DNA of 64,000 bases, taken from NCBI GenBank assembly GCA_964593795.1, contig CAZQJC010000111.1, positions 12,608 to 76,607 on the forward strand. Reading direction: 5' to 3'. This document shows positions 5,478 through 53,532 of this stretch, piece by piece. A program made the translations under genes and the position numbers. The first letter of the stretch is position 1. Each line of letters opens with the position of its first letter. This DNA comes from an uncultured Myxococcales bacterium. Its GTDB lineage: Bacteria > Myxococcota_A > Polyangia > JAHFDS01. The notes beneath the pieces are model-generated. The model saw only the letters and a program-made list of their open reading frames with translations. It searched no databases and was not told the DNA's origin.

Positions 5478-6725
5478 CTACTGCGCGGGGGCCCAGCGGA
5501 CGGGCCACCACGGCGGGCGGAGCGCTCCGGCCGACGTCGTGCTCGTGACGCGACCGTCGGGAGCGACGGAGAACGTGGCGACGCCGAGCGGCGCGGCGGA
5601 CGCGGTGAGCGCGCACTGCCACGCGCCGGGGTGGCTCGCGCGGCGCGTGGCCGTGTCCACGACCAGCGGCAGCGCGACGTGGTGCCGGCGCAGGCCCTCG
5701 CCCAAGGAGCTGTTCTGGTCGCGCGACCGGAGCGCGCCCTCGAGCGGGCGGCCGTCCACCGTGCACCGTGCGTAGACGTCCGCCGGGTTCGAAGGGCGCG
5801 CGTGGACCACGAGGTAGGCGCGCTCGGCCTTCGGCGTGGGCTCGTCGAGCGGCTCGGGCGCGAACGCGACGAACGCGTGCGCCTTGCGCCAGCCGAGCGA
5901 CGTGTCGAGCGTGCCGAGGGTGCTCTCGGCGCCGCTCGCGCCGGGCCGGTAACGCACCTCGAAGCGATCGGGCAGCGCGCTCGCGCACTCGGCGCGGCCG
6001 GTGGAGCTCCCGCCCCCGCGCGGCGCGATCCGCCTGACCGTGCACCGCACCGGCGGCTCGCCCACGAGGACCGCGTCGTCGTCCTGCACGTCCGCCGGCG
6101 CGTGCCCACGGAGCTGCAGCCACACCTTTTGGGTCTCCACGGACCGCGCGAAGCCGGTCACGTCCGGCACACCGGGCGCGATCCGCGGTGCGCGCGGCGG
6201 CTGCACGGCAGCGTCGACGAACACCTCGGACGCGCGACGGAGGGCGCGTTCGGGCGCGCGCGGCGGCTCCTTGTCGCGGCCGGGCGCCCGCGGCGCGTCG
6301 GTGATCACGGCGATGAGCTCCTCGAGCAGGCGCGCGCGCGTCGCGCCGTCGGTGGCGGGGCTCCGGAGCTGCTCGGCGATCGCCGTCAGCGCGGTGAAGC
6401 GCCGGTCCGCGCGCTCACGCTTCTCGCGGTACTCGGCGGGGGCCACGCGACAGGCGTTGAAGTCGCGGCAGAGCTGCAGCGACTGGTGCGCGAGGAGCTG
6501 CAGCGTCTCGCTCGGATCGCGCAGCGACTCCTGACCGGCCTTGACCGCGACGCCGACACCACCCAGCGAGAAGCCGAGGTCCACCTTGAGGCTCTCGTAG
6601 CGCGTGCGATAGACGTCGCAGTCGTCGCGCACGATCGCCCCGACGGGTGCGGGGCAGACGTACTCGCCGTAGGTGCCCGCGCAGGTCGAGGCCGCGAGCG
6701 CCAGGAGCAGCGCGAGCGGCCTCAT
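5478..6725 (-). CDS. Hypothetical exported/lipoprotein, paralogue B (415 aa)
   Basis: ATG at 6725 overlaps the upstream stop (ATGA). Signal-like MRPLALLLALAASTC. Shares CPAPxGxIVRDDC, LCxDxNACR and PWW motifs with the upstream gene. Confidence 0.75.
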   Translation of the reverse strand: MRPLALLLALAASTCAGTYGEYVCPAPVGAIVRDDCDVYRTRYESLKVDLGFSLGGVGVAVKAGQESLRDPSETLQLLAHQSLQLCRDFNACRVAPAEYREKRERADRRFTALTAIAEQLRSPATDGATRARLLEELIAVITDAPRAPGRDKEPPRAPERALRRASEVFVDAAVQPPRAPRIAPGVPDVTGFARSVETQKVWLQLRGHAPADVQDDDAVLVGEPPVRCTVRRIAPRGGGSSTGRAECASALPDRFEVRYRPGASGAESTLGTLDTSLGWRKAHAFVAFAPEPLDEPTPKAERAYLVVHARPSNPADVYARCTVDGRPLEGALRSRDQNSSLGEGLRRHHVALPLVVDTATRRASHPGAWQCALTASAAPLGVATFSVAPDGRVTSTTSAGALRPPWWPVRWAPAQ

Positions 6726-8215
6726 CGCCCCGCCTCGAGGTTCGCCTCGATCGCATTCGGCAGCGGGCGCGCCTCCACGCGCCACCACGGCGAGTCGATC
6801 CCACCGCGCGTCCCCCGCTGCGTCGCGTGGGGCTCGGGCCTGCCGTCGGCGCCGATGCGGAAGGTGACCTCGCGCAGCTTCTCGCCGCCGGCGGTGACCG
6901 TGCAAAGCCACGCGCCAGGCCGGCCAGACAGGAGCCCGAGCCCCGGGGGAGGCGTCGCCTGGTCGTGCGGGAGGACGAACGGCAGCGGGAACGCGAAGCG
7001 ACGCCACTCGATCTCGGGCGCGGGCTCCGCGATCGACGAGTTTCCCTTCTCGTGATAGCGGGGGCGGTCCTGGTAGGTCTCGAGCTGCGCGCCGCCGCGG
7101 CCCGGGCGGATCGCATCGTCGGTGACGAGCGCGCCGCCGACCTGGCAGCGCAGCGTCGGCGGCGGGTACTTGCCGCGCAGGCGCAGCGTCACCATCACGC
7201 TCGGCCGCTCGAACGCGGCCGGCAGGAAGCGCGGCTCGGGATCGAAGGCGAGGTAGGCCCGCTCGCGCTCGGCGTCGACGTCCACCCCGTAGTGGTGCAC
7301 GCCTGCGCGGATGCCGGCCTCGCGGTTCGGGTGCTCGAGGATGGTGTAGCGCCAGGTGCCGAGGACGCTCCGCTGGCCGGTCGCCGCTCGCCGGTACGCG
7401 AGCGCCACGGTCACCGCGCGATCGGTGCGGCGCGTGCCGTCGCGCTCGGCGCAGGCCACGGTGTGGAGGACGTCCTTGCCCTTGGCGTCCTTGCGCACCA
7501 GGCAGGACACGGTGCCGCTGCCGAAGTCCGCCTCGAGCACGTCGTCCGGCTCGAGCCGCCCGTACAGGTCCACACGCACGGTGGGCAGGAATGAATCGCG
7601 CGAGTCCTTGCCGTCGCGGATGAACTGCAGGCGCAGCGCGAGCTGCGGCTCGCCGAGGAGGCGCGGGACGCCATCGGCCACCGGCCCGGGCGACGGCGGC
7701 AACGTCCGCGCGCCCAGCCAGTAGCGCCCGAAGAACGGCTCGCGCCGCGTCGCCGCCACCGGCTCGGCCGGCGCTCGATCGGTGGGCGGGCCCCCCAGGG
7801 CCGCGAGGAGCCGCTCGAGGATGCGCTGCCGTTCCGGCTCGGACAGGCTCGGCGCCCGCAGCTCGGCCGACAGCGCGGCGACGACGACGAACGTGCGATC
7901 GAGCTCGTCGCGGCGACGGCGGTATTCCTCGGGCGCGAGCCGGCAGGCGTTCCAGTCCTGGCACAGGGCGTGGGCGCGCGTGGCGAGGAGCTGCACGAGC
8001 TCGCTCGGCGCGTGCGTCTGCTCCGACCCGACCTTGACGTTGCCCCCGACGACGCCCGCGAGGCTCGCGCCGACATCCACCGCCATCTTCTCGTAGCGCA
8101 CGCGGTACTGCTCGCAGTCGTCGCGCACGATCTCGCCGATGGGCGCCGGGCACGTGTATCGCCCGGTGGAGGCGCACGCGGAGAGGAGGAGCGCGAGGAG
8201 GAGACGCGGTCGCAC
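6722..8215 (-). CDS. Hypothetical lipoprotein, paralogue A (497 aa)
   Basis: GTG at 8215 gives MRPRLLLALLLSAC (lipobox LSAC). TAGAGT -10-like hexamer 7 nt upstream. Paralogous to 5478-6725. Confidence 0.78.
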   Translation of the reverse strand: MRPRLLLALLLSACASTGRYTCPAPIGEIVRDDCEQYRVRYEKMAVDVGASLAGVVGGNVKVGSEQTHAPSELVQLLATRAHALCQDWNACRLAPEEYRRRRDELDRTFVVVAALSAELRAPSLSEPERQRILERLLAALGGPPTDRAPAEPVAATRREPFFGRYWLGARTLPPSPGPVADGVPRLLGEPQLALRLQFIRDGKDSRDSFLPTVRVDLYGRLEPDDVLEADFGSGTVSCLVRKDAKGKDVLHTVACAERDGTRRTDRAVTVALAYRRAATGQRSVLGTWRYTILEHPNREAGIRAGVHHYGVDVDAERERAYLAFDPEPRFLPAAFERPSVMVTLRLRGKYPPPTLRCQVGGALVTDDAIRPGRGGAQLETYQDRPRYHEKGNSSIAEPAPEIEWRRFAFPLPFVLPHDQATPPPGLGLLSGRPGAWLCTVTAGGEKLREVTFRIGADGRPEPHATQRGTRGGIDSPWWRVEARPLPNAIEANLEAGR

Positions 8216-10233: not shown

Positions 10234-11602
<1,369 letters not shown>

Positions 11603-11693
11603 GACGCAGTGAGTCTAGACGGGGTCCGGCTCAACTTCTCAACTTTCGAGAAGCCGGCCCCTCCCTGGCCTCGCGAATCGACGTGGTTTCGAG

Positions 11694-13130
11694 CTACTTG
11701 AGCTCGGCGTTCGTGCGGGCGTCGAAGGTGGCGATCTCGCCGGGATTGTCGGCGGAGAGGGGGTCCGCCTCGCTGCCGAGGTCGGCGAGCCTCGCCCCGC
11801 GGTCGCCGAGGAGCGCGACCGCGAGCTGGAGCTTGCCGGCGCCCTCGGGCGCCAGCAGCAGGGCGTCGCCGCCCTCGATCGGCGCCTCGCGCATCTCCCA
11901 CGCCTGCGTGCCGCGCCGGAGCTGCAGGCGCACGCGCTTGACCAGCTCCTCCGGGTCCGAGATCACCTTGACCTCGATCCCGACGCCCTCCTTGGTGGGC
12001 TTGGCCGCACGTGAGACCACGATGCGCAGTGGCTTGCGCGTCTGCATGCCCTTCTGCGCGATGTCGAACGTTCGCTTCTCGACCGCGCCGGCTCCGGCCG
12101 GTAGCGCGAACCCGGGCTCGAGTGACAGGAGCCCGCGCCACGCGCGCACTGCCTCCTCCAGATCCTTGCGCGGCTCGAGCGCGTTCTCGGATCGCCGCGC
12201 CGCCAGCCGCGCGCGCACGCGCAGGGAGGCCAGGAACAGCGGACGCCCGGGATCGGCGTCCGCCGCGACGCGCCTTGCGACCTGCTCCGCCTCGGCGAGC
12301 TTGCCCCGCTCGAGCAGCCGATCGGCGAGATCGCACGCCTCCAGGCCGCGCGCGCTCGCCACCTCGATCGCGTCGAGCTCCTCCTCGAGCGGACCGAGCT
12401 TGGGCGTGATCTTCGTCGACGCGGCCGGATCCTTGGTGCTCGAGAGCGCCTGCCGGTACGAGGCGACGGCCCTGCGCAGGGCCTCGGGCGTGCGCGCCTT
12501 CTTCCACACCTCGGCGTTCGCCCGGCCGGCGGCCAGGAGGAGCTGCCAGGGCCTCGACCGGTCGACCAGATCCGCCGGCTCGGTCAGCCCCTCGGGCGCC
12601 ACGGCCGTCGCGAGCGCGTGCGCCTCGGTGAAGGCTCGCGCCGCGTCGTCGAACGCGCCCTGCTGGAACTGCTGCGTCCCCTCGCGGATGAGCTCGCCGA
12701 GGCGCGCCCGCTTCTTCGGGACCTCCTCCGCCTTGCGGGCCACCTCCTCGCGCGCTTTCTGCTGCTCGCGCATGAGGAGCGGCTTGTACTGTCCCAGCAT
12801 CGACAGCGCGCTCTGCTTGCGCACGACGTCCTGCTCGACGAGCTGCTCGAGCAGCGCCACCGCGCGGTCGAGCGCCTTCGGATCCTTGTTGGCGTCCCAG
12901 GCGCGGCCATAGGCCGTGGCGGCGGCGAAGAGGAGCGCCAGATCGGGCAGGACGGCGTACGCCTCCTCGAAGCGCGCGCCGGCCTCGGCGGACTTGCCCG
13001 CCTTGAGCAGCGCCTGCGCCTCGTCGCTCTTCCGCTTGACCTCCTGCTTTCGCTTCTCGAGGGGCTCGGCCGCGGCGCTTGCCGCCGGACACGCCACGCC
13101 GAGCAGGAGGACCAGAGCGAGGAGGCGCAC
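11694..13130 (-). CDS. Exported TPR-like helical-repeat protein with a C-terminal beta-rich domain
   Basis: Signal/lipobox-like VRLLALVLLLGVAC, then helical repeats (AGARFEEAYA, FDDAARAFTEA). Start codon uncertain. Confidence 0.65.
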   Translation of the reverse strand: MRLLALVLLLGVACPAASAAAEPLEKRKQEVKRKSDEAQALLKAGKSAEAGARFEEAYAVLPDLALLFAAATAYGRAWDANKDPKALDRAVALLEQLVEQDVVRKQSALSMLGQYKPLLMREQQKAREEVARKAEEVPKKRARLGELIREGTQQFQQGAFDDAARAFTEAHALATAVAPEGLTEPADLVDRSRPWQLLLAAGRANAEVWKKARTPEALRRAVASYRQALSSTKDPAASTKITPKLGPLEEELDAIEVASARGLEACDLADRLLERGKLAEAEQVARRVAADADPGRPLFLASLRVRARLAARRSENALEPRKDLEEAVRAWRGLLSLEPGFALPAGAGAVEKRTFDIAQKGMQTRKPLRIVVSRAAKPTKEGVGIEVKVISDPEELVKRVRLQLRRGTQAWEMREAPIEGGDALLLAPEGAGKLQLAVALLGDRGARLADLGSEADPLSADNPGEIATFDARTNAELK

Positions 13131-47252: not shown

Positions 47253-47612
47253 ATGGGCACGCGGCTGTACGTCGGTAACCTTTCCTACAACACCACTGAG
47301 AGCTCGCTCCGCGCTGCTTTCGAGCAGTTCGGCCAGGTCGTCGACCTCAAGGTCCCGACCGATCGCGAGACCGGCCAGCCGCGCGGCTTCGCGTTCGTCG
47401 AGATGAGCAGCCCGGCTGACGCCGAGGCGGCCATGTCGGGCATGAACGGCAAGGAGCTCGATGGTCGTCGCCTCAAGGTCAGCGAGGCGCAGGAGCGTCC
47501 GCGCGGCGGTGGCGGCGGTGGCGGCGGCGGCGGCGGTGGTGGCGGCCGTGGCGGCGGCGGCGGTGGCCGCGGTGGCCGCGGCGGCGGCGGCGGCGGCGGC
47601 GGCCGCTGGTAG
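47253..47612 (+). CDS. RRM (RNP-1) RNA-binding protein with a Gly-rich tail
   Basis: LYVGNL (RNP2), RGFAFVEM (RNP1), GGR tail. GGAGG RBS. Confidence 0.95.
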
Positions 47613-47715
47613 CAGCGTCGCCCTCTCGAGGGCCTCGCTGATACGAAGCGTCGTCTCGATCCTCGGGCTCGCGTCCTGCCTTTCTTGTAGACGCGAGCCC
47701 GAGAGACCGCTCGAC

Positions 47716-48360
47716 GTGCGTCGGGTCGGCGATGGCGCCGGCCCAGCCCTGGTTCTTCTACACGGCTACGGCGCCCCCCCAGACGACCTGGTTTCCCTGT
47801 CCCGGGAGCTCGATGCTCCGGCGGGAACGCGGTTCGTGTTCCCTGCGGCCCCCTTGCGGGTGCCAAGCACAGGGGGCCTCGGCTGGTGGCCCATCGACTT
47901 CGCAGAGGTACAAGGCGCTCTTCGCGCAGGCGACGAGCGTGTCTTCGCGCGCCAGCGGCCGAGCGAGCTGCTGGCGGCGCGCCGCATGGTGAGCGCGCTG
48001 CTGGAACAGGTGGCGCGCGAGCGGCCGCAGGCGCCGGTCGTGCTCGGCGGTTTCTCGCAGGGCGCGATGGTCGCCGCCGACGTCGCCCTGCTCGGGCCGC
48101 GCGCGCCGCGGTGCCTGATCCTGTTCTCGCCGGCCATCGCAGCCGAGGCCGAGTGGCGCGCTGCCCGGCGTCCCGGCCTCGAGGTCTTCCTCTCCCACGG
48201 GGACAAGGACCGCATCCTCCCCGTGTCCGAGTCGCGGCGCCTCGCGCAGCTCCTCGAGGCCGCAGGCGCGCACGTCGAGCTCCACGTCTTCGACGGCGGG
48301 CACACGATGCCGGGCGAGATCCTGGCGGCCGCAAGCGCGTTCCTCGAGCGCTGCCGCTGA
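47716..48360 (+). CDS. Phospholipase/carboxylesterase-family alpha/beta hydrolase
   Basis: LLHGYG, GGFSQG nucleophile elbow, HGDKD, GGH. Start uncertain and may lie further upstream. Confidence 0.85.
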   Translation: MRRVGDGAGPALVLLHGYGAPPDDLVSLSRELDAPAGTRFVFPAAPLRVPSTGGLGWWPIDFAEVQGALRAGDERVFARQRPSELLAARRMVSALLEQVARERPQAPVVLGGFSQGAMVAADVALLGPRAPRCLILFSPAIAAEAEWRAARRPGLEVFLSHGDKDRILPVSESRRLAQLLEAAGAHVELHVFDGGHTMPGEILAAASAFLERCR

Positions 48361-48458
48361 CGAGGCACGACCGGCGGTGGGGGCCACACCCACACCACAT
48401 TGCAGGGAACCCGCGGCCGCCTCGCGCGTCTATGATCCACATGCGCGGGAGGTTTCCC

Positions 48459-49253
48459 ATGGGGCTTCGTCAGTGCGTCGTGGCCATGCTGCTCGCGGGC
48501 GGCTGCGGCGGAGACGGCGATCCGAGCGGCTACGTGCTGCTCGATCGCGAGGCGCGCGCGGCGGGGCTCACGATCCAGGCCGTGGGCTTCCAGGGGGCGC
48601 CTGCCCTCCCGATGGCGCTGCACGTCGACGACCGCGTGACGCTCCACGTCCCCGGCGGCCCGCCACGCGCGATCGCGGTTCGGCCAGGCGCGCTCGCGTG
48701 GGTGCGACGCGCCACCGGAGACGTCGAGTACGCGGACGTCGGCGTGAAGGCCCGGGCCGATCTGCTCGTCGTCGACGCGGACCCCGGCGGCGCGCGCGCG
48801 CTCGCGGACCTGCTCGGCGGAAGCCTCTGGCCGCGCCCCGACGGGCGCTGGTCGATCGAGGCGCCCGACGTGCTCGATCGCGCGAGCTTCCTGCCCGAAC
48901 CGGGCGGCGTCCGCGAGGCGGCGCCGGCGATCGTCGCCGACGGTGCCTCGACGTCGACCGCGCGCGTGGCCGTGCGGATCGAGGCGGCGCCAGACGAGCG
49001 CCTCGAGCGCTTCGCCGCGACCGTGGAGACCACGTCGGCGGGCCTCGTCGGCGTCTACCGATCGCAAGAGGGCCTGCTCGTCATCGACGCGGGCGGGGGC
49101 TTCTCGCTGCACTGCGGCCAGACGCGCGGTCACGTGACGATCGACCGCGGGCGCGTGCAGCTCGTGCCGGAGCACGGCGCGGCGCAGGCGGCGATCGTGA
49201 TCAAGGACGGCGAGCTCGAGCTCGGCGGCGAGCGCTTCGCGGTGGTCGAGTGA
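48459..49253 (+). CDS. Hypothetical lipoprotein, first gene of the MNIO operon
   Basis: GGAGG RBS; lipobox AGGC; TATGAT -10-like hexamer at 48431; stop overlaps the next start (GTGA). Confidence 0.7.
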   Translation: MGLRQCVVAMLLAGGCGGDGDPSGYVLLDREARAAGLTIQAVGFQGAPALPMALHVDDRVTLHVPGGPPRAIAVRPGALAWVRRATGDVEYADVGVKARADLLVVDADPGGARALADLLGGSLWPRPDGRWSIEAPDVLDRASFLPEPGGVREAAPAIVADGASTSTARVAVRIEAAPDERLERFAATVETTSAGLVGVYRSQEGLLVIDAGGGFSLHCGQTRGHVTIDRGRVQLVPEHGAAQAAIVIKDGELELGGERFAVVE

Positions 49254-49951
49254 ACACCACGCGGCGACATTTCCTCGCGGGCGCGGCCGCGGCGATGGTG
49301 CTCGGGCCACGGCTCGTGTTCGCCGAGCCGTGCGAGCGCGACTGCACCGACGGCGCGGCGCTCGTGGCGGCGGCGTTCCGGCGTGCGCAGCGCGGCAAGC
49401 GGCCGCTGCTGGTCGTCGTGATCCCCGAGGACGGCAAGAAGCATGACCGGGGGCGCGCCTTCGGCGAGCTCCTCAACCACGGCGGCGACGCGCACCTCGC
49501 GCCCTTCGGCGCGGCCGAGGTCGTCTGCGCGACGCTCGAGGATCTGCGCCGCATCGTCCCCGCGGTGCCGTCCGGGCGCCCCGTCGCGGTCGTCGTCACG
49601 CCGCACACGACACCGATCGGCGTGCAGCTCGTCGACGCCGCGCTCGAGGAGGGCGAGCGCGACGGCGAGGACGACCTCGCCGATCAGCGCATCGCGATCC
49701 TCGGCGGCGCGATCCGGAGGGCGCTCCGCGTGCCCGCCGCGGACGTCAAGCGCCTTGCGGCCGAGGCGCGCGAGGCGGTCGTGAAGAAGCCCCCACCCGG
49801 CGCGCGGTGGGCCAGCGGCTCCGGCTGCGGCGAGCGCGTCGAGGGCGACGACCATCCGCTCATGGTCAAGTGCGGCATGGGCCACGTGCCCGCCAAGAGC
49901 CGCCGCTTCCTCTACCTGTGGGCGAAGCTGCCGTCGGAGCGCTACCGATGA
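49250..49951 (+). CDS. Twin-arginine-signal Cys-motif protein, paralogue 1 (candidate MNIO substrate, 233 aa)
   Basis: TRRHFL; CERDC; GELLNHG; GSGCG; CGMGHVPAKSRRFLYL. Confidence 0.8.
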   Translation: MNTTRRHFLAGAAAAMVLGPRLVFAEPCERDCTDGAALVAAAFRRAQRGKRPLLVVVIPEDGKKHDRGRAFGELLNHGGDAHLAPFGAAEVVCATLEDLRRIVPAVPSGRPVAVVVTPHTTPIGVQLVDAALEEGERDGEDDLADQRIAILGGAIRRALRVPAADVKRLAAEAREAVVKKPPPGARWASGSGCGERVEGDDHPLMVKCGMGHVPAKSRRFLYLWAKLPSERYR

Positions 49952-50661
49952 TGCGCCGAAGGGAGCTGCTCTTCGGCGCCACCGCCGCCATCGTCCTCGG
50001 CCCGCGCCTCGTGTTCGCCGACGACTGCGAGCGCGACTGCGCCGAGGGCGTCGCGCGCGTGGCGGCCGCGTTCCGCCGCGCGCAGCGAGCGAGCCGGCCG
50101 CTCCTCGTCCTCGTGATCCCGAAGGACGACGCGCGAAAGCACCCCGCGGGGGTCGCGTGGGGCGAGCTCCTCAACCACGGCACCGACGCGCAGCTCGCGC
50201 CCTTCGGCGCCGCCGAGGTGATCTGCGCGACCGCCGAGGACCTCCGCCGCATCGTGCCCGCGGAGGGCGAGCGGGAGCCGGTGGCGTACGCGGTGCTGCC
50301 CGGCTCGCGCGTGCTCGCCCAGGCCATCGAGGTCACGCTGCCGGCGGGGCGCGAGGACAAGGATGCCGAGCGGCGCATGGCGCTCCTGGGCGCCGCCGTC
50401 GCGCGGGCGATCGCCACGGATCCGAGGCGCGCACGGTCGCTGGCCGCCGCCGCGCGCGCGAACGTGGTGAAGAAGCCGCCCGCCGGGGCGCGCTGGGCGA
50501 GCAGCGCCGGGTGCGGCGTCGAGGTCGAGGGCGCCCCCGACGACGGCATGGTCGTCGGCTGCGGGATGGGCCACGTGCCGCAGAAGAGCCAGCGCTTCCT
50601 GTACCTCTTCGCCAAGCTGCCGCACGAGCGATTCCGCGAGGCCGCCAAGGAGCGCAAGTGA
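49948..50661 (+). CDS. Twin-arginine-signal Cys-motif protein, paralogue 2 (237 aa)
   Basis: RRRELL; CERDC; GELLNHG; SAGCG; CGMGHVPQKSQRFLYL. ATGA overlap. Confidence 0.8.
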   Translation: MMRRRELLFGATAAIVLGPRLVFADDCERDCAEGVARVAAAFRRAQRASRPLLVLVIPKDDARKHPAGVAWGELLNHGTDAQLAPFGAAEVICATAEDLRRIVPAEGEREPVAYAVLPGSRVLAQAIEVTLPAGREDKDAERRMALLGAAVARAIATDPRRARSLAAAARANVVKKPPAGARWASSAGCGVEVEGAPDDGMVVGCGMGHVPQKSQRFLYLFAKLPHERFREAAKERK

Positions 50662-51383
50662 ACCGTCGCCACTTCGTCTCGCTCACCGCCGCCGCGCTCG
50701 CGCTGCCGCGACGCCTCGTGTTCGCCACGCCGTGCGAGAGCGACTGCACCGACGGCGCAGCGCGCGTCGCTGCCGCCTTCCGCCGCGCCGAGCGGGCGCG
50801 CGTGCCGCTCGTCGTCATCGTCAACCCCGCGGCGGATGCGGGGAAATACGCGCGCGGCACCGCGTTCGGCGAGCTGCTCAACCACGGCTCCGACGCGCAG
50901 CTCGCGCCGCTCGCGCTCGTCGAGGTCGTCGTCGCGGGCATGGAGGAGCTGCGGCGCATCGTCCCGAACCAGCTCGCGGGTGAGCCTTGGCTGGTGGTCG
51001 TGGCGACCGATCGCACGCCCGCGAGGACGACGGCGATCGATCCAGCCGTGCCCGAGCGGGGCCCGAGCAAGCGCGGGCGCGGCGATCCTGACGAGGACAA
51101 GGCGGTCGACCGCCGGATCGCCGTGCTCGGCGGCGCCGTCGCGGCCGCCCTGCCCCGCCCCGAGGCCTCTCGCGTCGCCGAGCTCGCGGCGCGCACCCGC
51201 GAGCGGCTGGTCAAGCGTGCGCCGGAGGGAGCGCGCTGGGCCGTGGGCAGCGGCTGCGGCGTGGACGTCGAGGGCGAGGAGCCCGACGCGGTCGACTGCG
51301 GCATGGGCCACGTGCCCGCCAAGAGCCGCCGCTTCCTCTACCTCTACGCGAAGACCCCGAACGACCGCCGCAAGTCGCGCTGA
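50658..51383 (+). CDS. Twin-arginine-signal Cys-motif protein, paralogue 3 (241 aa)
   Basis: NRRHFV; CESDC; GELLNHG; GSGCG; CGMGHVPAKSRRFLYL. GTGA overlap. Confidence 0.8.
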   Translation: MNRRHFVSLTAAALALPRRLVFATPCESDCTDGAARVAAAFRRAERARVPLVVIVNPAADAGKYARGTAFGELLNHGSDAQLAPLALVEVVVAGMEELRRIVPNQLAGEPWLVVVATDRTPARTTAIDPAVPERGPSKRGRGDPDEDKAVDRRIAVLGGAVAAALPRPEASRVAELAARTRERLVKRAPEGARWAVGSGCGVDVEGEEPDAVDCGMGHVPAKSRRFLYLYAKTPNDRRKSR

Positions 51384-51392
51384 TCGAGGCGC

Positions 51393-52271
51393 ATGGTCCC
51401 CGTGGGCTTCACCCTGCAGCCCGAGCTCGAGTTCCTCGAGCGCTGCGCGCCACTCATCCGCATGGCCGAATATTTCGAGGTCACACCCGAGACGCTCTGG
51501 CGTCCGGATGCGCGCGGGGCGCTCGAGCCGAACGGCTTCCACCGGCGCTTCGCCGCGCTCACCTCCACGGGCAAGCCCTTCGTCGCGCACGGCGTGGGCC
51601 TCTCGATGGGCACCACGGCGTCCGCCGATCGCGCGCGCCGCCGCCGCTGGCTCGCCGCCGTGCGCCGCGACCACGCCACCTTCCGCTTCCGCTGGTACAC
51701 CGAGCACCTCGGCGCCAGCTCCCTGGGCGGGCTCGCGATGACGCTGCCGATGCCGCTGCCGATGACCGCCGCGGCCGCGCGCACCGTGCGGGCGCGCCTG
51801 CGCGCGATGCAGGCCGTGGTGCCCGACGTGGGCGTCGAGAACAACGTCGCCTATTTCACGCTCGGCGCCCCCCTCGAGGAGCCCGCGTTCCTGGGCGCGT
51901 GCACGCGCGCGCCGCGTACGCACCTGCTGCTCGACCTGCACAACGTGCACACGATGGCCGAGAACTTCGGCTTCGATCCCGACGACTACCTCGCGCGCCT
52001 GCCGCTGGAGCGAGTGATCGAGCTCCACCTCTCCGGCGGCCGCTCGAGCGACGGCGCGTGGCTCCCCGGCGGGCGCGTGATGCGGCTCGACAGCCACGAC
52101 GACGCGGTCCCCGAACGTGTCTGGAGCCTCTACGAGCGCTGGGCGCCGCGGTGCCCACGCCTGCGCGGCGTGACGCTCGAGCGCATGGAGGGCACGGTCG
52201 GAGACGGAGACGTGCCCGTCCTCCGCGAGGAGCTCCGGCGGGCGCGCACGACCGCGAGACGCTGCAGATGA
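51393..52271 (+). CDS. DUF692 family multinuclear non-haem iron oxidative enzyme (MNIO; MbnB/TglH/ChrH superfamily)
   Basis: HGVGLSMG, WYTEHL, VENN, LLDLHNV, ELHLSGG, DSHDDAVP and VTLER carry the full H/H/E/D/N/H/D/H/E ligand pattern. Confidence 0.92.
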   Translation: MVPVGFTLQPELEFLERCAPLIRMAEYFEVTPETLWRPDARGALEPNGFHRRFAALTSTGKPFVAHGVGLSMGTTASADRARRRRWLAAVRRDHATFRFRWYTEHLGASSLGGLAMTLPMPLPMTAAAARTVRARLRAMQAVVPDVGVENNVAYFTLGAPLEEPAFLGACTRAPRTHLLLDLHNVHTMAENFGFDPDDYLARLPLERVIELHLSGGRSSDGAWLPGGRVMRLDSHDDAVPERVWSLYERWAPRCPRLRGVTLERMEGTVGDGDVPVLREELRRARTTARRCR

Positions 52272-52633
52272 AGCCGCACGAACGACGCGGGGCCGCCTTC
52301 GAGCGCATCCTGGCCGCGGCCATGACCGCAGCCGATCCGGTGCGCGCCCTGCGTCGCGCGGCGCGAGCCGGTGGCGTCGATGCGGACCTCCGGGCGCGCC
52401 TCCTGGCGGCCGACGCGGACGGCGTGCGCATGTCCGCTCTGCTGGTCGCACGCCTGCGCTTCGAGCGCCTGCTGCGTGGGTCGGCCTCCGCCGAGGCCTT
52501 CTACGAGTCCGACCCGGCAGCGTTCACGGCCACCTTCCGCCGGTATCACCAGGCAGTGCCCCCGAACGCGTTCTTCCCGCGCGAGGAGGCCGCGCTCTGG
52601 GAGGAGTTTCTCGCTCGCCGCCGCCGGCGCTGA
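52268..52633 (+). CDS. Small helical MNIO partner-like protein (121 aa)
   Basis: ATGA-coupled to the DUF692 gene. LRFERLL, FRRYHQAVPP and EAALWEEFL resemble the N-terminal domain of DUF2063-type partners. Confidence 0.65.
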   Translation: MKPHERRGAAFERILAAAMTAADPVRALRRAARAGGVDADLRARLLAADADGVRMSALLVARLRFERLLRGSASAEAFYESDPAAFTATFRRYHQAVPPNAFFPREEAALWEEFLARRRRR

Positions 52634-52714
52634 CTGTTTTCTCGAGACAACAGGGGTGCGCCACGGCGTGCCAGCGTCGCGCGCCCCGATGAACGGAATC
52701 CACAGGTTGCCTGG

Positions 52715-52730
52715 TGGCACGGCGCCTGCT
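52715..52730 (+). promoter_or_regulatory. Sigma54-type -24/-12 promoter candidate
   Basis: TGGCACGGCGCCTGCT has GG-N10-GC spacing with the TGGCAC core. Confidence 0.45.
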
Positions 52731-52743
52731 CAAGGGCCGCGAC

Positions 52744-53532
52744 ATGCGCAAGCAAGCGACGCGAGCCTCTCGCCTCTGGATCTCCTCGATGACCCTTTGC
52801 GCAGCCCTCGTGGCCGCGGGCTGCGGCTCGGACCCCGCCGGGGGATCTGGCAGCGGCGGCGCCGGTGCCTCGGGAACCGGTGGTGCGGGCCCGGGGGGCG
52901 CGGGCGCAGGCGGTGCCGGCTCCGGCGGCGCGGGAAGAGGCGGCGCGGGCGGCGCAGGTACTGGCGGCACTGGTGGCGCGGGCACGGGCGGCGCGGGCAG
53001 AGGTGGCGCAGGTGCGGGTGGCGCAGGCGCGGGTGCGGGTGGCGCAGGCGCGGGGGGCGCTGGCGGCTCCACCGGACGCCTGTGCGGCGGCCTGCTCGGC
53101 GCGAGCTGCGCGACCGGCGAGTACTGCGACTACGGCGCGAACCGCTGCGGCAACGGCGACGAGCAGGGCCAGTGCAAGGCGCGGCCGGGCGCCTGCCCCG
53201 ACCTCTACGCGCCCGTCTGCGCGTGCAACGGCATGACCTACGGCAACGAGTGCGACGCCAACGCCGCCGGCTTCGACGTCGCGGCCTCTGGCGGGTGTCC
53301 CGCGCCGCAAGGAATGTTCGCGTGCGGCACGCAATTCTGCCAGCACGGGACGCAGTACTGCCGCCGCGACATCTCCGACGTCGGCGGCTTCCCGGATGGA
53401 TTCAGCTGCCACACCCTGCCCGCCGCGTGCGGCACTGCGCCGAGCTGCGCGTGCGTCCGCGCCGAGACCTGCGGCTCGAGCTGCGAGGCCACGGCCGCCT
53501 CGGATCTCACGGTGTCCTGCGCCGGCGGCTGA
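52744..53532 (+). CDS. Cys-rich lipoprotein with a Gly-rich linker and a Kazal-like module
   Basis: Lipobox AAGC; long GAGG linker; CPDLYAPVCACNGMTYGNEC. Confidence 0.78.
   Translation: MRKQATRASRLWISSMTLCAALVAAGCGSDPAGGSGSGGAGASGTGGAGPGGAGAGGAGSGGAGRGGAGGAGTGGTGGAGTGGAGRGGAGAGGAGAGAGGAGAGGAGGSTGRLCGGLLGASCATGEYCDYGANRCGNGDEQGQCKARPGACPDLYAPVCACNGMTYGNECDANAAGFDVAASGGCPAPQGMFACGTQFCQHGTQYCRRDISDVGGFPDGFSCHTLPAACGTAPSCACVRAETCGSSCEATAASDLTVSCAGG

Follow-up and report, generated by a model that had tools for sequence, protein, structure and literature searches.

The locus described here raises the question of what an oxidative enzyme modifies when no short precursor peptide is encoded beside it. 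The locus (positions 48459-52633) lies within a 64,000-nucleotide stretch of DNA from an uncultured Myxococcales bacterium, hereafter the window, and encodes an oxidative enzyme that depends on multinuclear nonheme iron (MNIO, DUF692). Almost all known MNIO substrates are short peptides that are exported by the general secretory (Sec) pathway or by dedicated transporters. Just upstream of the enzyme gene are three tandem genes for related proteins of about 235 amino acids with predicted signals for twin-arginine translocation (Tat), and an initial annotation of the window proposed these full-size proteins as the substrates. The proposal is supported by ordered co-occurrence in both directions of search, tandem copies, conservation of a Cys-containing module, and short peptides that replace the Tat proteins at some loci. 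Judging from these comparisons, it is highly probable that the Tat proteins are the substrates of the MNIO.

Organization of the operon

The region has a G+C content of approximately 75% and comprises six open reading frames (ORFs), all on the plus strand. Stop and start codons overlap at GTGA 49250, ATGA 49948, GTGA 50658 and ATGA 52268, and a 9-nucleotide spacer (51384-51392), which includes a Shine-Dalgarno-like GAGG motif, precedes the ATG of the MNIO gene at 51393. The coordinates and junctions of these six co-directional genes were all confirmed as initially annotated. Each gene has a high-GC coding signature, with G+C fractions of 0.86-0.97 at third codon positions versus 0.52-0.58 at second positions. 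The operon leaves no intergenic room for a further ORF, and a promoter and terminator scan of the 75% GC region detected nothing.

The Tat protein family and its C-terminal module

Paralogues A (233 amino acids, 49250-49951), B (237 amino acids, 49948-50661) and C (241 amino acids, 50658-51383) share 52-62% pairwise identity (59-62% to A, 52-61% to B). The first family search, which was word-indexed, retrieved 78 relatives, all unnamed except one that NCBI names a Tat-signal protein; those with a taxon name come from Polyangia, Sorangium, Sandaracinaceae or Kofleriaceae. A profile was then run in full against 1.84 billion cluster representatives (50% clustering) and matched 959 of them at E<=1e-3; the count at E<=1e-30 is 487. 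Almost every one of these is full length (220-357 amino acids). The paralogues are members of an unnamed protein family that is found mainly in Myxococcota.

Its members share an invariant C-terminal module, W..GCG-x13-19-CGMGH..KS.RFL. Among 33 diverse aligned members, 13 columns are invariant: the twin arginines account for two, and nine belong to this C-terminal module, within the last 36 aligned residues. Among 207 retrieved family sequences, which are the basis of all motif counts, CG[ML][GA] is present in 205, most often as CGMGHVP, and the preceding Cys has a GCG context in 184. Between the two Cys residues there are 13-19 others in 184 of the 205 (mode 14); the second is followed by a KS.RFL-containing tail some 23 residues long. 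Family members contain 2-9 Cys residues (median 4), and the window paralogues 4-5.

In the window proteins, the module takes the form GCG-x13-15-CGMGH and is located 20-33 residues short of the C terminus. The proposed modification sites are W187..GC193G-x14-C208GMGHVPAKSRRFL in paralogue A (49808-49912), W183..GC189G-x15-C205GMGHVPQKSQRFL in paralogue B (50494-50601) and W194..GC200G-x13-C214GMGHVPAKSRRFL in paralogue C (51237-51338). CG[ML]G occurs nowhere else in the 64-kb window, and near the cluster the window holds no CPxCG or CxxCGxG peptide, consistent with the earlier statement that a short precursor is absent.

The predicted Tat signals comprise approximately residues 1-25 of paralogue A (TRRHFLAG...VFA), 1-24 of paralogue B and 1-23 of paralogue C. 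A twin-arginine start (M-[NK]-R-R-x-F-L, or RRx[FLV][LV] at residues 3-7) is found in 197 of the 207 members; a hydrophobic stretch comes next in 178 members, and 180 have an AxA-like site. The Pfam TAT_signal model matches paralogue A just at E 0.034, and it matches 13 of the 33 aligned family members (best E 2.4e-5). Because RRxFL is family-wide, TAT_signal matches recur and one homologue carries the NCBI name, we predict a Tat signal, as the initial annotation did for all three proteins. The paralogues thereby have the sequence characteristics of Tat substrates, and their export is predicted on that basis.

An AlphaFold2 model of paralogue B (pLDDT [predicted local distance difference test] 85.8, predicted template modeling score 0.82) is disordered at residues 1-28 and continues as an alpha/beta globular domain. 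This confident globular model implies that the paralogues are true folded proteins rather than disordered peptides. The CGMGH loop is the least confident part of the fold (block 201-210, pLDDT 66), with confident strands on either side. A Foldseek search of the model against PDB gave no significant neighbor; the weak matches are all to thioredoxin-fold proteins (AGR2, QSOX, calsequestrin, the b' domain of PDI, and ERp18; E 0.7-7, TM score 0.2-0.5). The family alignment contains no CxxC at the canonical thioredoxin position.

Directly past the predicted Tat cleavage site, each window paralogue has a CxxxC motif (C-E-R/S-D-C; 49325-49345, 50020-50040 and 50727-50747). Only the closest relatives share it with the window proteins, and the family as a whole does not conserve it; it could represent an extra disulfide or a metal site.

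Co-occurrence with the MNIO

To survey genomic contexts, one genome per species was scanned with an 18-sequence subset as query, the 33-sequence alignment being too diverse, and 10-kb flanks were examined by tblastn and hidden Markov models. The scan yielded 53 loci, of which 51 are informative in that their contigs continue; approximately 80 related clusters were found overall. The genome loci are mostly from Sorangium, Chondromyces, Minicystis, Nannocystis, Sandaracinaceae and other Myxococcota metagenome-assembled genomes (MAGs).

An MNIO orthologue (42-69% identity) is located downstream of the family gene or genes in 46 of the 51 informative loci, and directly downstream in 44. A helper gene, encoding a homologue of the small protein at the end of the operon, follows the MNIO gene in 43 of these 46 loci, and in the remaining three the contigs end first. 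The family gene is present in one to four tandem copies (four in locus L022 and three in L026). Such tandem multiplication is common among precursor genes of peptides that are synthesized ribosomally and modified posttranslationally (RiPPs). A reciprocal scan of metagenome contigs carrying the MNIO gave 28 loci, in which all MNIOs that are at least 50% identical and have readable upstream DNA are preceded by the Tat family, except at L059 and L060.

A few loci are binned outside Myxococcota (Acidobacteria, Holophagales and Alphaproteobacteria), which suggests bin contamination or horizontal transfer. L038, on a contig binned as Actinomycetes, has two divergent substrate-MNIO-helper modules (164-2123 on the plus strand and 6400-8163 on the minus strand), and its fragmented model matches suggest frameshifts.

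Short candidate precursors and the nearest outgroup

L059 and L060, whose MNIO is 61% identical and whose helper is 49% identical to those of the window, differ in the gene whose stop codon overlaps the MNIO start. This gene encodes a 78-amino-acid peptide, MKTLTIKDVSREEELDGKAMAEVRGG-SRLFVDLNKETIKAANIDVLGRWNVGETAACTGCGMGSITDKSSRFLNVYAG. Three more homologues of the peptide were found. One is 68% identical, has GCPGCGLAVMGDTSSRFLNVY, and is encoded by a gene that is likewise overlapped by the start of an MNIO gene, whose product is 53% identical to that of the window. The peptides of L059, L060 and L082 are 74-78 amino acids long and combine a leader-like MKTL..EVRGG N terminus with the same C-terminal module as the Tat proteins; the peptide core aligns with the Tat-family module with an hhalign probability of 93.9% (E 1.6e-7). 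In sequence, they look like classical leader-plus-core RiPP precursors. The initial annotation had counted a separate short precursor as grounds for refutation; these peptides, which stand in place of the Tat proteins and not beside them and have the same motif, are no such case and instead support the assignment of the Tat proteins as substrates.

The nearest outgroup of the enzyme is the MNIO of L072 (46% identity). It is preceded by a 99-amino-acid ORF with an embedded NCPACGMAV, and its helper homologue is convergent to the MNIO gene. The motifs of sister clusters are CTGCGMG, CPGCGLA and CPACGMA. The CPACGM precursor of L072 (5684-5983) begins MDQQQRRRLTDILYLGGATLAAVSVGLLM, which may serve as a Tat-like signal or anchor the protein in the membrane, and it hints that twin-arginine N termini may predate fusion to the globular domain.

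The MNIO and its helper

The MNIO (292 amino acids, 51393-52271) matches Pfam PF05114 (MbnB_TglH_ChrH) with 134.6 bits (cut-off 25; E 4.8e-39) over model positions 21-260 of 263. Its motifs HG..LS, EHL, VEN, LDLHN, LHLSG, DSHDD and LER align with the DUF692 structures 3bww and TglH (8hci), at positions that we take, from MbnB and TglH, to be those of the iron ligands; the initial assignment to DUF692 thus stands. Among PDB sequences, the closest solved relative is TglH 8hci (E 6.4e-16), followed by the Histophilus DUF692 protein 3bww. The enzyme is below all NCBIfam equivalog cut-offs (BufB 112 of 310 bits, HvfB 105 of 360, ChrH 98 of 600 and ApyH 59 of 400), and with 98.2 bits against the ChrH model NF050165 (cut-off 600), it is not a sequence member of that subfamily. 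It is an MNIO outside every named equivalog family.

The helper (121 amino acids, 52268-52633), whose gene is coupled to the MNIO gene through ATGA, is modeled by AlphaFold2 as an all-helical bundle of seven helices (pLDDT 95.1), in agreement with the helical partner first annotated. Its 167 homologues are all unnamed, and one follows the MNIO gene in every related locus with a continuing contig, except L072, where it is on the opposite strand. Neither the MNIO nor the helper has a signal peptide, which implies that both are cytoplasmic and that any modification must precede export.

Searches with 25 helper family members gave no Pfam or NCBIfam match, and comparison with PDB sequences, using both a single sequence and a profile, found nothing relevant. 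Foldseek of the helper model against PDB, a method that is insensitive to small helical bundles, returned nothing below E 6.3. An artificial MNIO-helper fusion neither raised nor extended the match to the ChrH model. A fold like that of PME-type 2 or DUF2063 partners was considered and rejected for the helper, as these searches showed no similarity to NGO1945 (3dee) or TglI (8hi7), although a distant relationship could have escaped them.

Two Sorangium loci have further features near the helper gene. L004 contains two helper homologues in one locus (11538-11897 and 12624-12938). In L003, from Sorangium cellulosum So ce56, a frame 5' of the helper gene (11379-12092) has variable ARGGAGE-type repeats, and tandem DNA repeats just downstream (12096-12600) translate as RQQRFLAPLPGVSSASLHPCRASAALPCTPAG.

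Proposed mechanism and alternatives

Taken together, the sequence comparisons make it reasonably likely that the locus is an operon of four components for maturation and export, occurring chiefly in Myxococcota, in which the MNIO and helper modify Tat-exported proteins in a chryseobasin-like manner. On this view, the modification itself, the residues modified, its chemistry, when it takes place with respect to export, and what the lipoprotein does would be as follows. The cytoplasmic MNIO would act with the co-translated helical helper, and both would oxidatively modify the two invariant Cys residues of the module on each of the three tandem proteins, which are predicted to fold into a thioredoxin-like globular domain. 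The finished proteins would leave via Tat by using their RRxFL signals, and once exported would probably act with the co-encoded lipoprotein.

By analogy, the chemistry might be like that of ChrH. This is our best guess because of the invariant C-G-M-G, the second invariant Cys, and the sister forms CPACGM and C[TP]GCG, and we hold it tentatively, at somewhat less than even odds. In such a reaction, a four-electron oxidation would start from the CGMG Cys, the Cys-Gly-Met backbone would give rise to a hydantoin, and the upstream GCG Cys would provide the capture. The resulting closed loop would span approximately 15-17 residues, versus the four-residue ring of ChrA. Tat exports folded proteins, and a covalently closed loop in a folded domain, which would be hard to thread through SecYEG, would explain the use of Tat over Sec. 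It is a fair possibility, though somewhat less than even, that these are the first Tat-exported proteins matured by an MNIO: a large, mainly myxococcotal family of periplasmic thioredoxin-like proteins stapled in the cytoplasm by a long-range Cys-to-CGMG crosslink plus a backbone heterocycle within a folded domain, incompatible with Sec, served by a new class of partner, and with the short peptides as offshoots of their module.

Several observations weigh against parts of this explanation. The window proteins lack CPxC, and their first Cys is 13-15 residues away, so that we infer its equivalence to the first Cys of ChrA. The enzyme is no ChrH equivalog, and its ChrH score is no better than those for BufB or HvfB. 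In the fusion test on the ChrH model, the helper has no detectable homology to the ChrH C-terminal domain. The structural model packs the motif between strands of a folded domain, a position that poses a difficulty for enzyme access. The placement of L072 outside and L059 inside the clade derives from a neighbor-joining tree without support values. Finally, five of the 51 informative loci are orphans that retain the motif without an MNIO within 10 kb (L021, L023, L032, L043 and L051).

Two of the orphans, L023 and L051, belong to MAGs with a full cluster on another contig (L019 and L040, respectively). The neighborhoods of the orphans (FKBP-type peptidyl-prolyl isomerase, HtrA-like protease, MFS transporter, PlsX and DHFR) suggest no alternative maturase. 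At L021 (1298-1888 and 1896-2921), the orphan gene precedes genes for a secreted protein rich in His and Gly and for a serine protease resembling HtrA, a neighborhood of periplasmic stress type.

Among other explanations, the one that survives best, at perhaps one chance in several, retains the same substrates and changes the chemistry. The Cys residues might become bufferin-type 5-thiooxazoles or methanobactin/oxazolin-type oxazolone-thioamides, which together with the Met and His of CGMGH might form a periplasmic site for a metal such as copper. Cys, Met and His are typical soft-metal ligands. The enzyme does score marginally better on BufB (112 bits) and HvfB (105) than on ChrH (98), but all three scores are far under the cut-offs and do not discriminate among families. 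Gly follows both Cys residues, as in the EGKCG of oxazolins, and most characterized products of secreted MNIO precursors bind copper (PMC12452194). However, the locus lacks both a DUF2063 partner and a DoxX gene. The neighborhood contains no conserved gene for metal homeostasis, and the hydrolase and Kazal-like genes on its flanks do not recur in other loci. Also, the invariant CGMG and the sister forms CPACGM and C[TP]GCG point to a ChrA-type motif. The copper or zinc link suggested in the initial annotation finds no support in the analysis.

We think it improbable that the Tat proteins are not substrates, and are instead periplasmic accessory, carrier or immunity proteins of thioredoxin fold, with the MNIO acting on a small peptide or on the lipoprotein. 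Their large, folded nature, the weak thioredoxin-fold resemblance in Foldseek and the existence of orphan copies are compatible with such a function, and Antoine et al. call precursor assignment to featureless ORFs hazardous (PMC12452194). However, the operon has no space for another ORF, and the surroundings of the cluster hold no further CG[ML]G or CPxCG peptide. The genes for the Tat proteins are tandemly multiplied and stand upstream of the MNIO gene, where a precursor is canonically encoded, and the only Cys residues invariant throughout the family lie in the module that is shared with the short, precursor-like peptides that replace the Tat proteins (L059 and L082). As for the lipoprotein, its gene was undetected in nearly half of the loci, and its lone invariant Cys is that of the lipobox.

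Least of all, by a wide margin, do we expect the Cys...CGMGH motif, with its Cys, Met and His, to be a cofactor or metal site that is loaded in the cytoplasm by the MNIO and helper as assembly or insertion factors without covalent modification, even though many Tat substrates take up cofactors before export. Every characterized MNIO covalently modifies a peptide substrate (PMC13056109), and the module also occurs in short unstructured leader-type peptides that are unable to form a cofactor pocket.

The lipoprotein and flanking genes

The first gene of the operon (48459-49253) encodes a predicted lipoprotein of 264 amino acids and unknown family, a conserved but facultative fourth component of the cluster. 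Its lipobox-like LLAGGC contains the only Cys that is invariant among its homologues, which bears out the initial classification. Of the 53 genome loci, 28 have the gene beside those for Tat proteins when searched by family profile, and tblastn with the window protein detects it in 22. No Pfam or PDB relative was found, including by profile. An alternative in-frame ATG is present at 48432, and the start at 48459 is preferred because GGGAGG is located shortly 5' of its ATG. In L026, L052, L070 and L074, the lipoprotein gene is situated between Tat-protein genes, or between them and the MNIO gene.

Upstream of the operon, a gene at 47253-47612 (+) encodes a small RNA-binding protein of the RRM type (LYVGNL … RGFAFVEM) whose Gly/Arg tail is 40 residues long. 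An alpha/beta-hydrolase ORF (47461-48360) overlaps this gene by 150 nucleotides, and its Pfam match starts at residue 93; given the overlap, the true start of the hydrolase is probably further in. Just 3' of the operon, the gene at 52714-53532 (+) encodes a lipoprotein-like product with a long Gly-rich linker, a Cys-rich C-terminal part and a weak match to Kazal-type inhibitors (Kazal_1, E 9.5e-5). Both the Kazal-like gene and the hydrolase gene were left out of the system because they are conserved in no related locus.

Significance

The range of unusual peptide chemistry known from MNIO enzymes is expanding rapidly. If the proposal is correct, their substrates would come to include a large group of folded proteins (959 representatives at 50% clustering), and RiPP-style maturation would be tied to the Tat pathway. 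A search of the accessible literature for MNIO together with a twin-arginine or Tat signal, and for CGMGH, returned nothing relevant, and no paper that makes this link was found there, although the loci could yet figure in the ChrH dataset of PMC13056109. The occurrence of one module in both protein-borne and peptide-borne forms provides a natural comparison that could reveal how the enzyme recognizes its substrate and what purpose a ChrH-type product serves. The analysis also delimits the unnamed families of the helper and of the lipoprotein and provides a motif that could serve in annotation pipelines.

Comparison with known MNIO systems

The TglH/TglI system provides the best PDB sequence match and, like the proposed system, has a two-protein complex of MNIO and helper that acts on a Cys near the C terminus. 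In contrast, TglA is a cytoplasmic carrier peptide, and the helper described here has no sequence or fold match to TglI.

The BufABC and HvfABC systems share the gene order of secreted Cys-containing precursor, MNIO and partner; some of their precursors are protein-sized, and modification takes place before export. Bufferin and oxazolin systems have Sec signals, a partner with DUF2063 and a RiPP recognition element (PME-type 1), frequent DoxX, and precursors of the DUF2282, Buf_6/12Cys or EGKCG types, all of which the present locus lacks. Assignment as a bufferin system was rejected, given a BufB score of 112 of 310 bits, the lack of a DUF2063, DUF2282 or DoxX match, and the twin-arginine signal.

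Antoine et al. in 2025 predicted long, signal-less or unusual upstream MNIO substrates and short helical downstream partners, and noted five DUF692 genes without an assigned bufferin-type precursor in S. cellulosum So ce56 (PMC12452194). The main text of this survey mentions neither Tat nor Myxococcota. The adjamnio candidates and PME-type 2 partners (PMC12452194) resemble the present system in combining an unusual upstream protein with a short helical downstream partner. Adjamnio-I proteins have 122-293 residues and 8-21 Cys residues and are followed by an MNIO and a PME-type 2 partner (PMC12452194). Membership in adjamnio-I was rejected on the basis of those 8-21 Cys residues versus 2-9 (median 4) here, by comparison with the published description. 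Judged by their descriptions, none of the adjamnio families appears to fit the Tat family.

The closest parallels are to ChrA/ChrH, DybA/DybH and the MelA1/MelH/MelHc system of Melainabacteria, with which the window system shares a two-Cys motif with C-G-M-G and a substrate gene directly upstream. ChrA ends in CPACGMG; ChrH begins with the second of its Cys residues, placing the carbonyl of that residue between the amide nitrogens of Gly and Met so that an imidazolidinedione forms, and then joins the thiol of the first Cys to the former Cys beta-carbon (PMC10214503). The ChrH subfamily acts on CPxCGxG motifs, which are usually C-terminal, although some myxobacterial precursors have an embedded motif (PMC13056109). 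Its members have an extra helical bundle of approximately 7.8 kDa; in Cyanobacteria this bundle is encoded apart, as the protein MelHc, and activity requires it (PMC13056109). MelH and the small helical MelHc were shown experimentally in 2026 to modify MelA1, a 34-kDa protein with a Sec signal (PMC13056109). MelA1/MelH/MelHc is especially similar in that its substrate is a secreted protein of >30 kDa and a small helical protein is encoded beside the MNIO.

In contrast to the Sec or lipoprotein signals of ChrH systems, the present substrates have Tat signals, and a lipoprotein gene is conserved. The window proteins do not carry the CPxCGxG motif and retain the CGMG half alone. Their split GCG-x13-19-CGMGH, with a KS.RFL tail of about 20 residues, is situated in a globular, weakly thioredoxin-like domain, whereas the ChrH-type motif is at the end of a tetratricopeptide-repeat protein or peptide. 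The conserved seven-helix protein is encoded separately, and its fusion with the MNIO adds nothing to the ChrH match. The claim of novelty in the initial annotation holds in part. Long precursors were predicted in 2025 (PMC12452194) and a 34-kDa substrate was demonstrated in 2026 (PMC13056109), so MNIO modification of a secreted protein at a CGMG-type motif, assisted by a small helical partner, is already known. What is new is the Tat signal, the split motif in a weakly thioredoxin-like domain, a distinct enzyme clade and helper family, a conserved lipoprotein, and a substrate-candidate family of approximately 1000 representatives.

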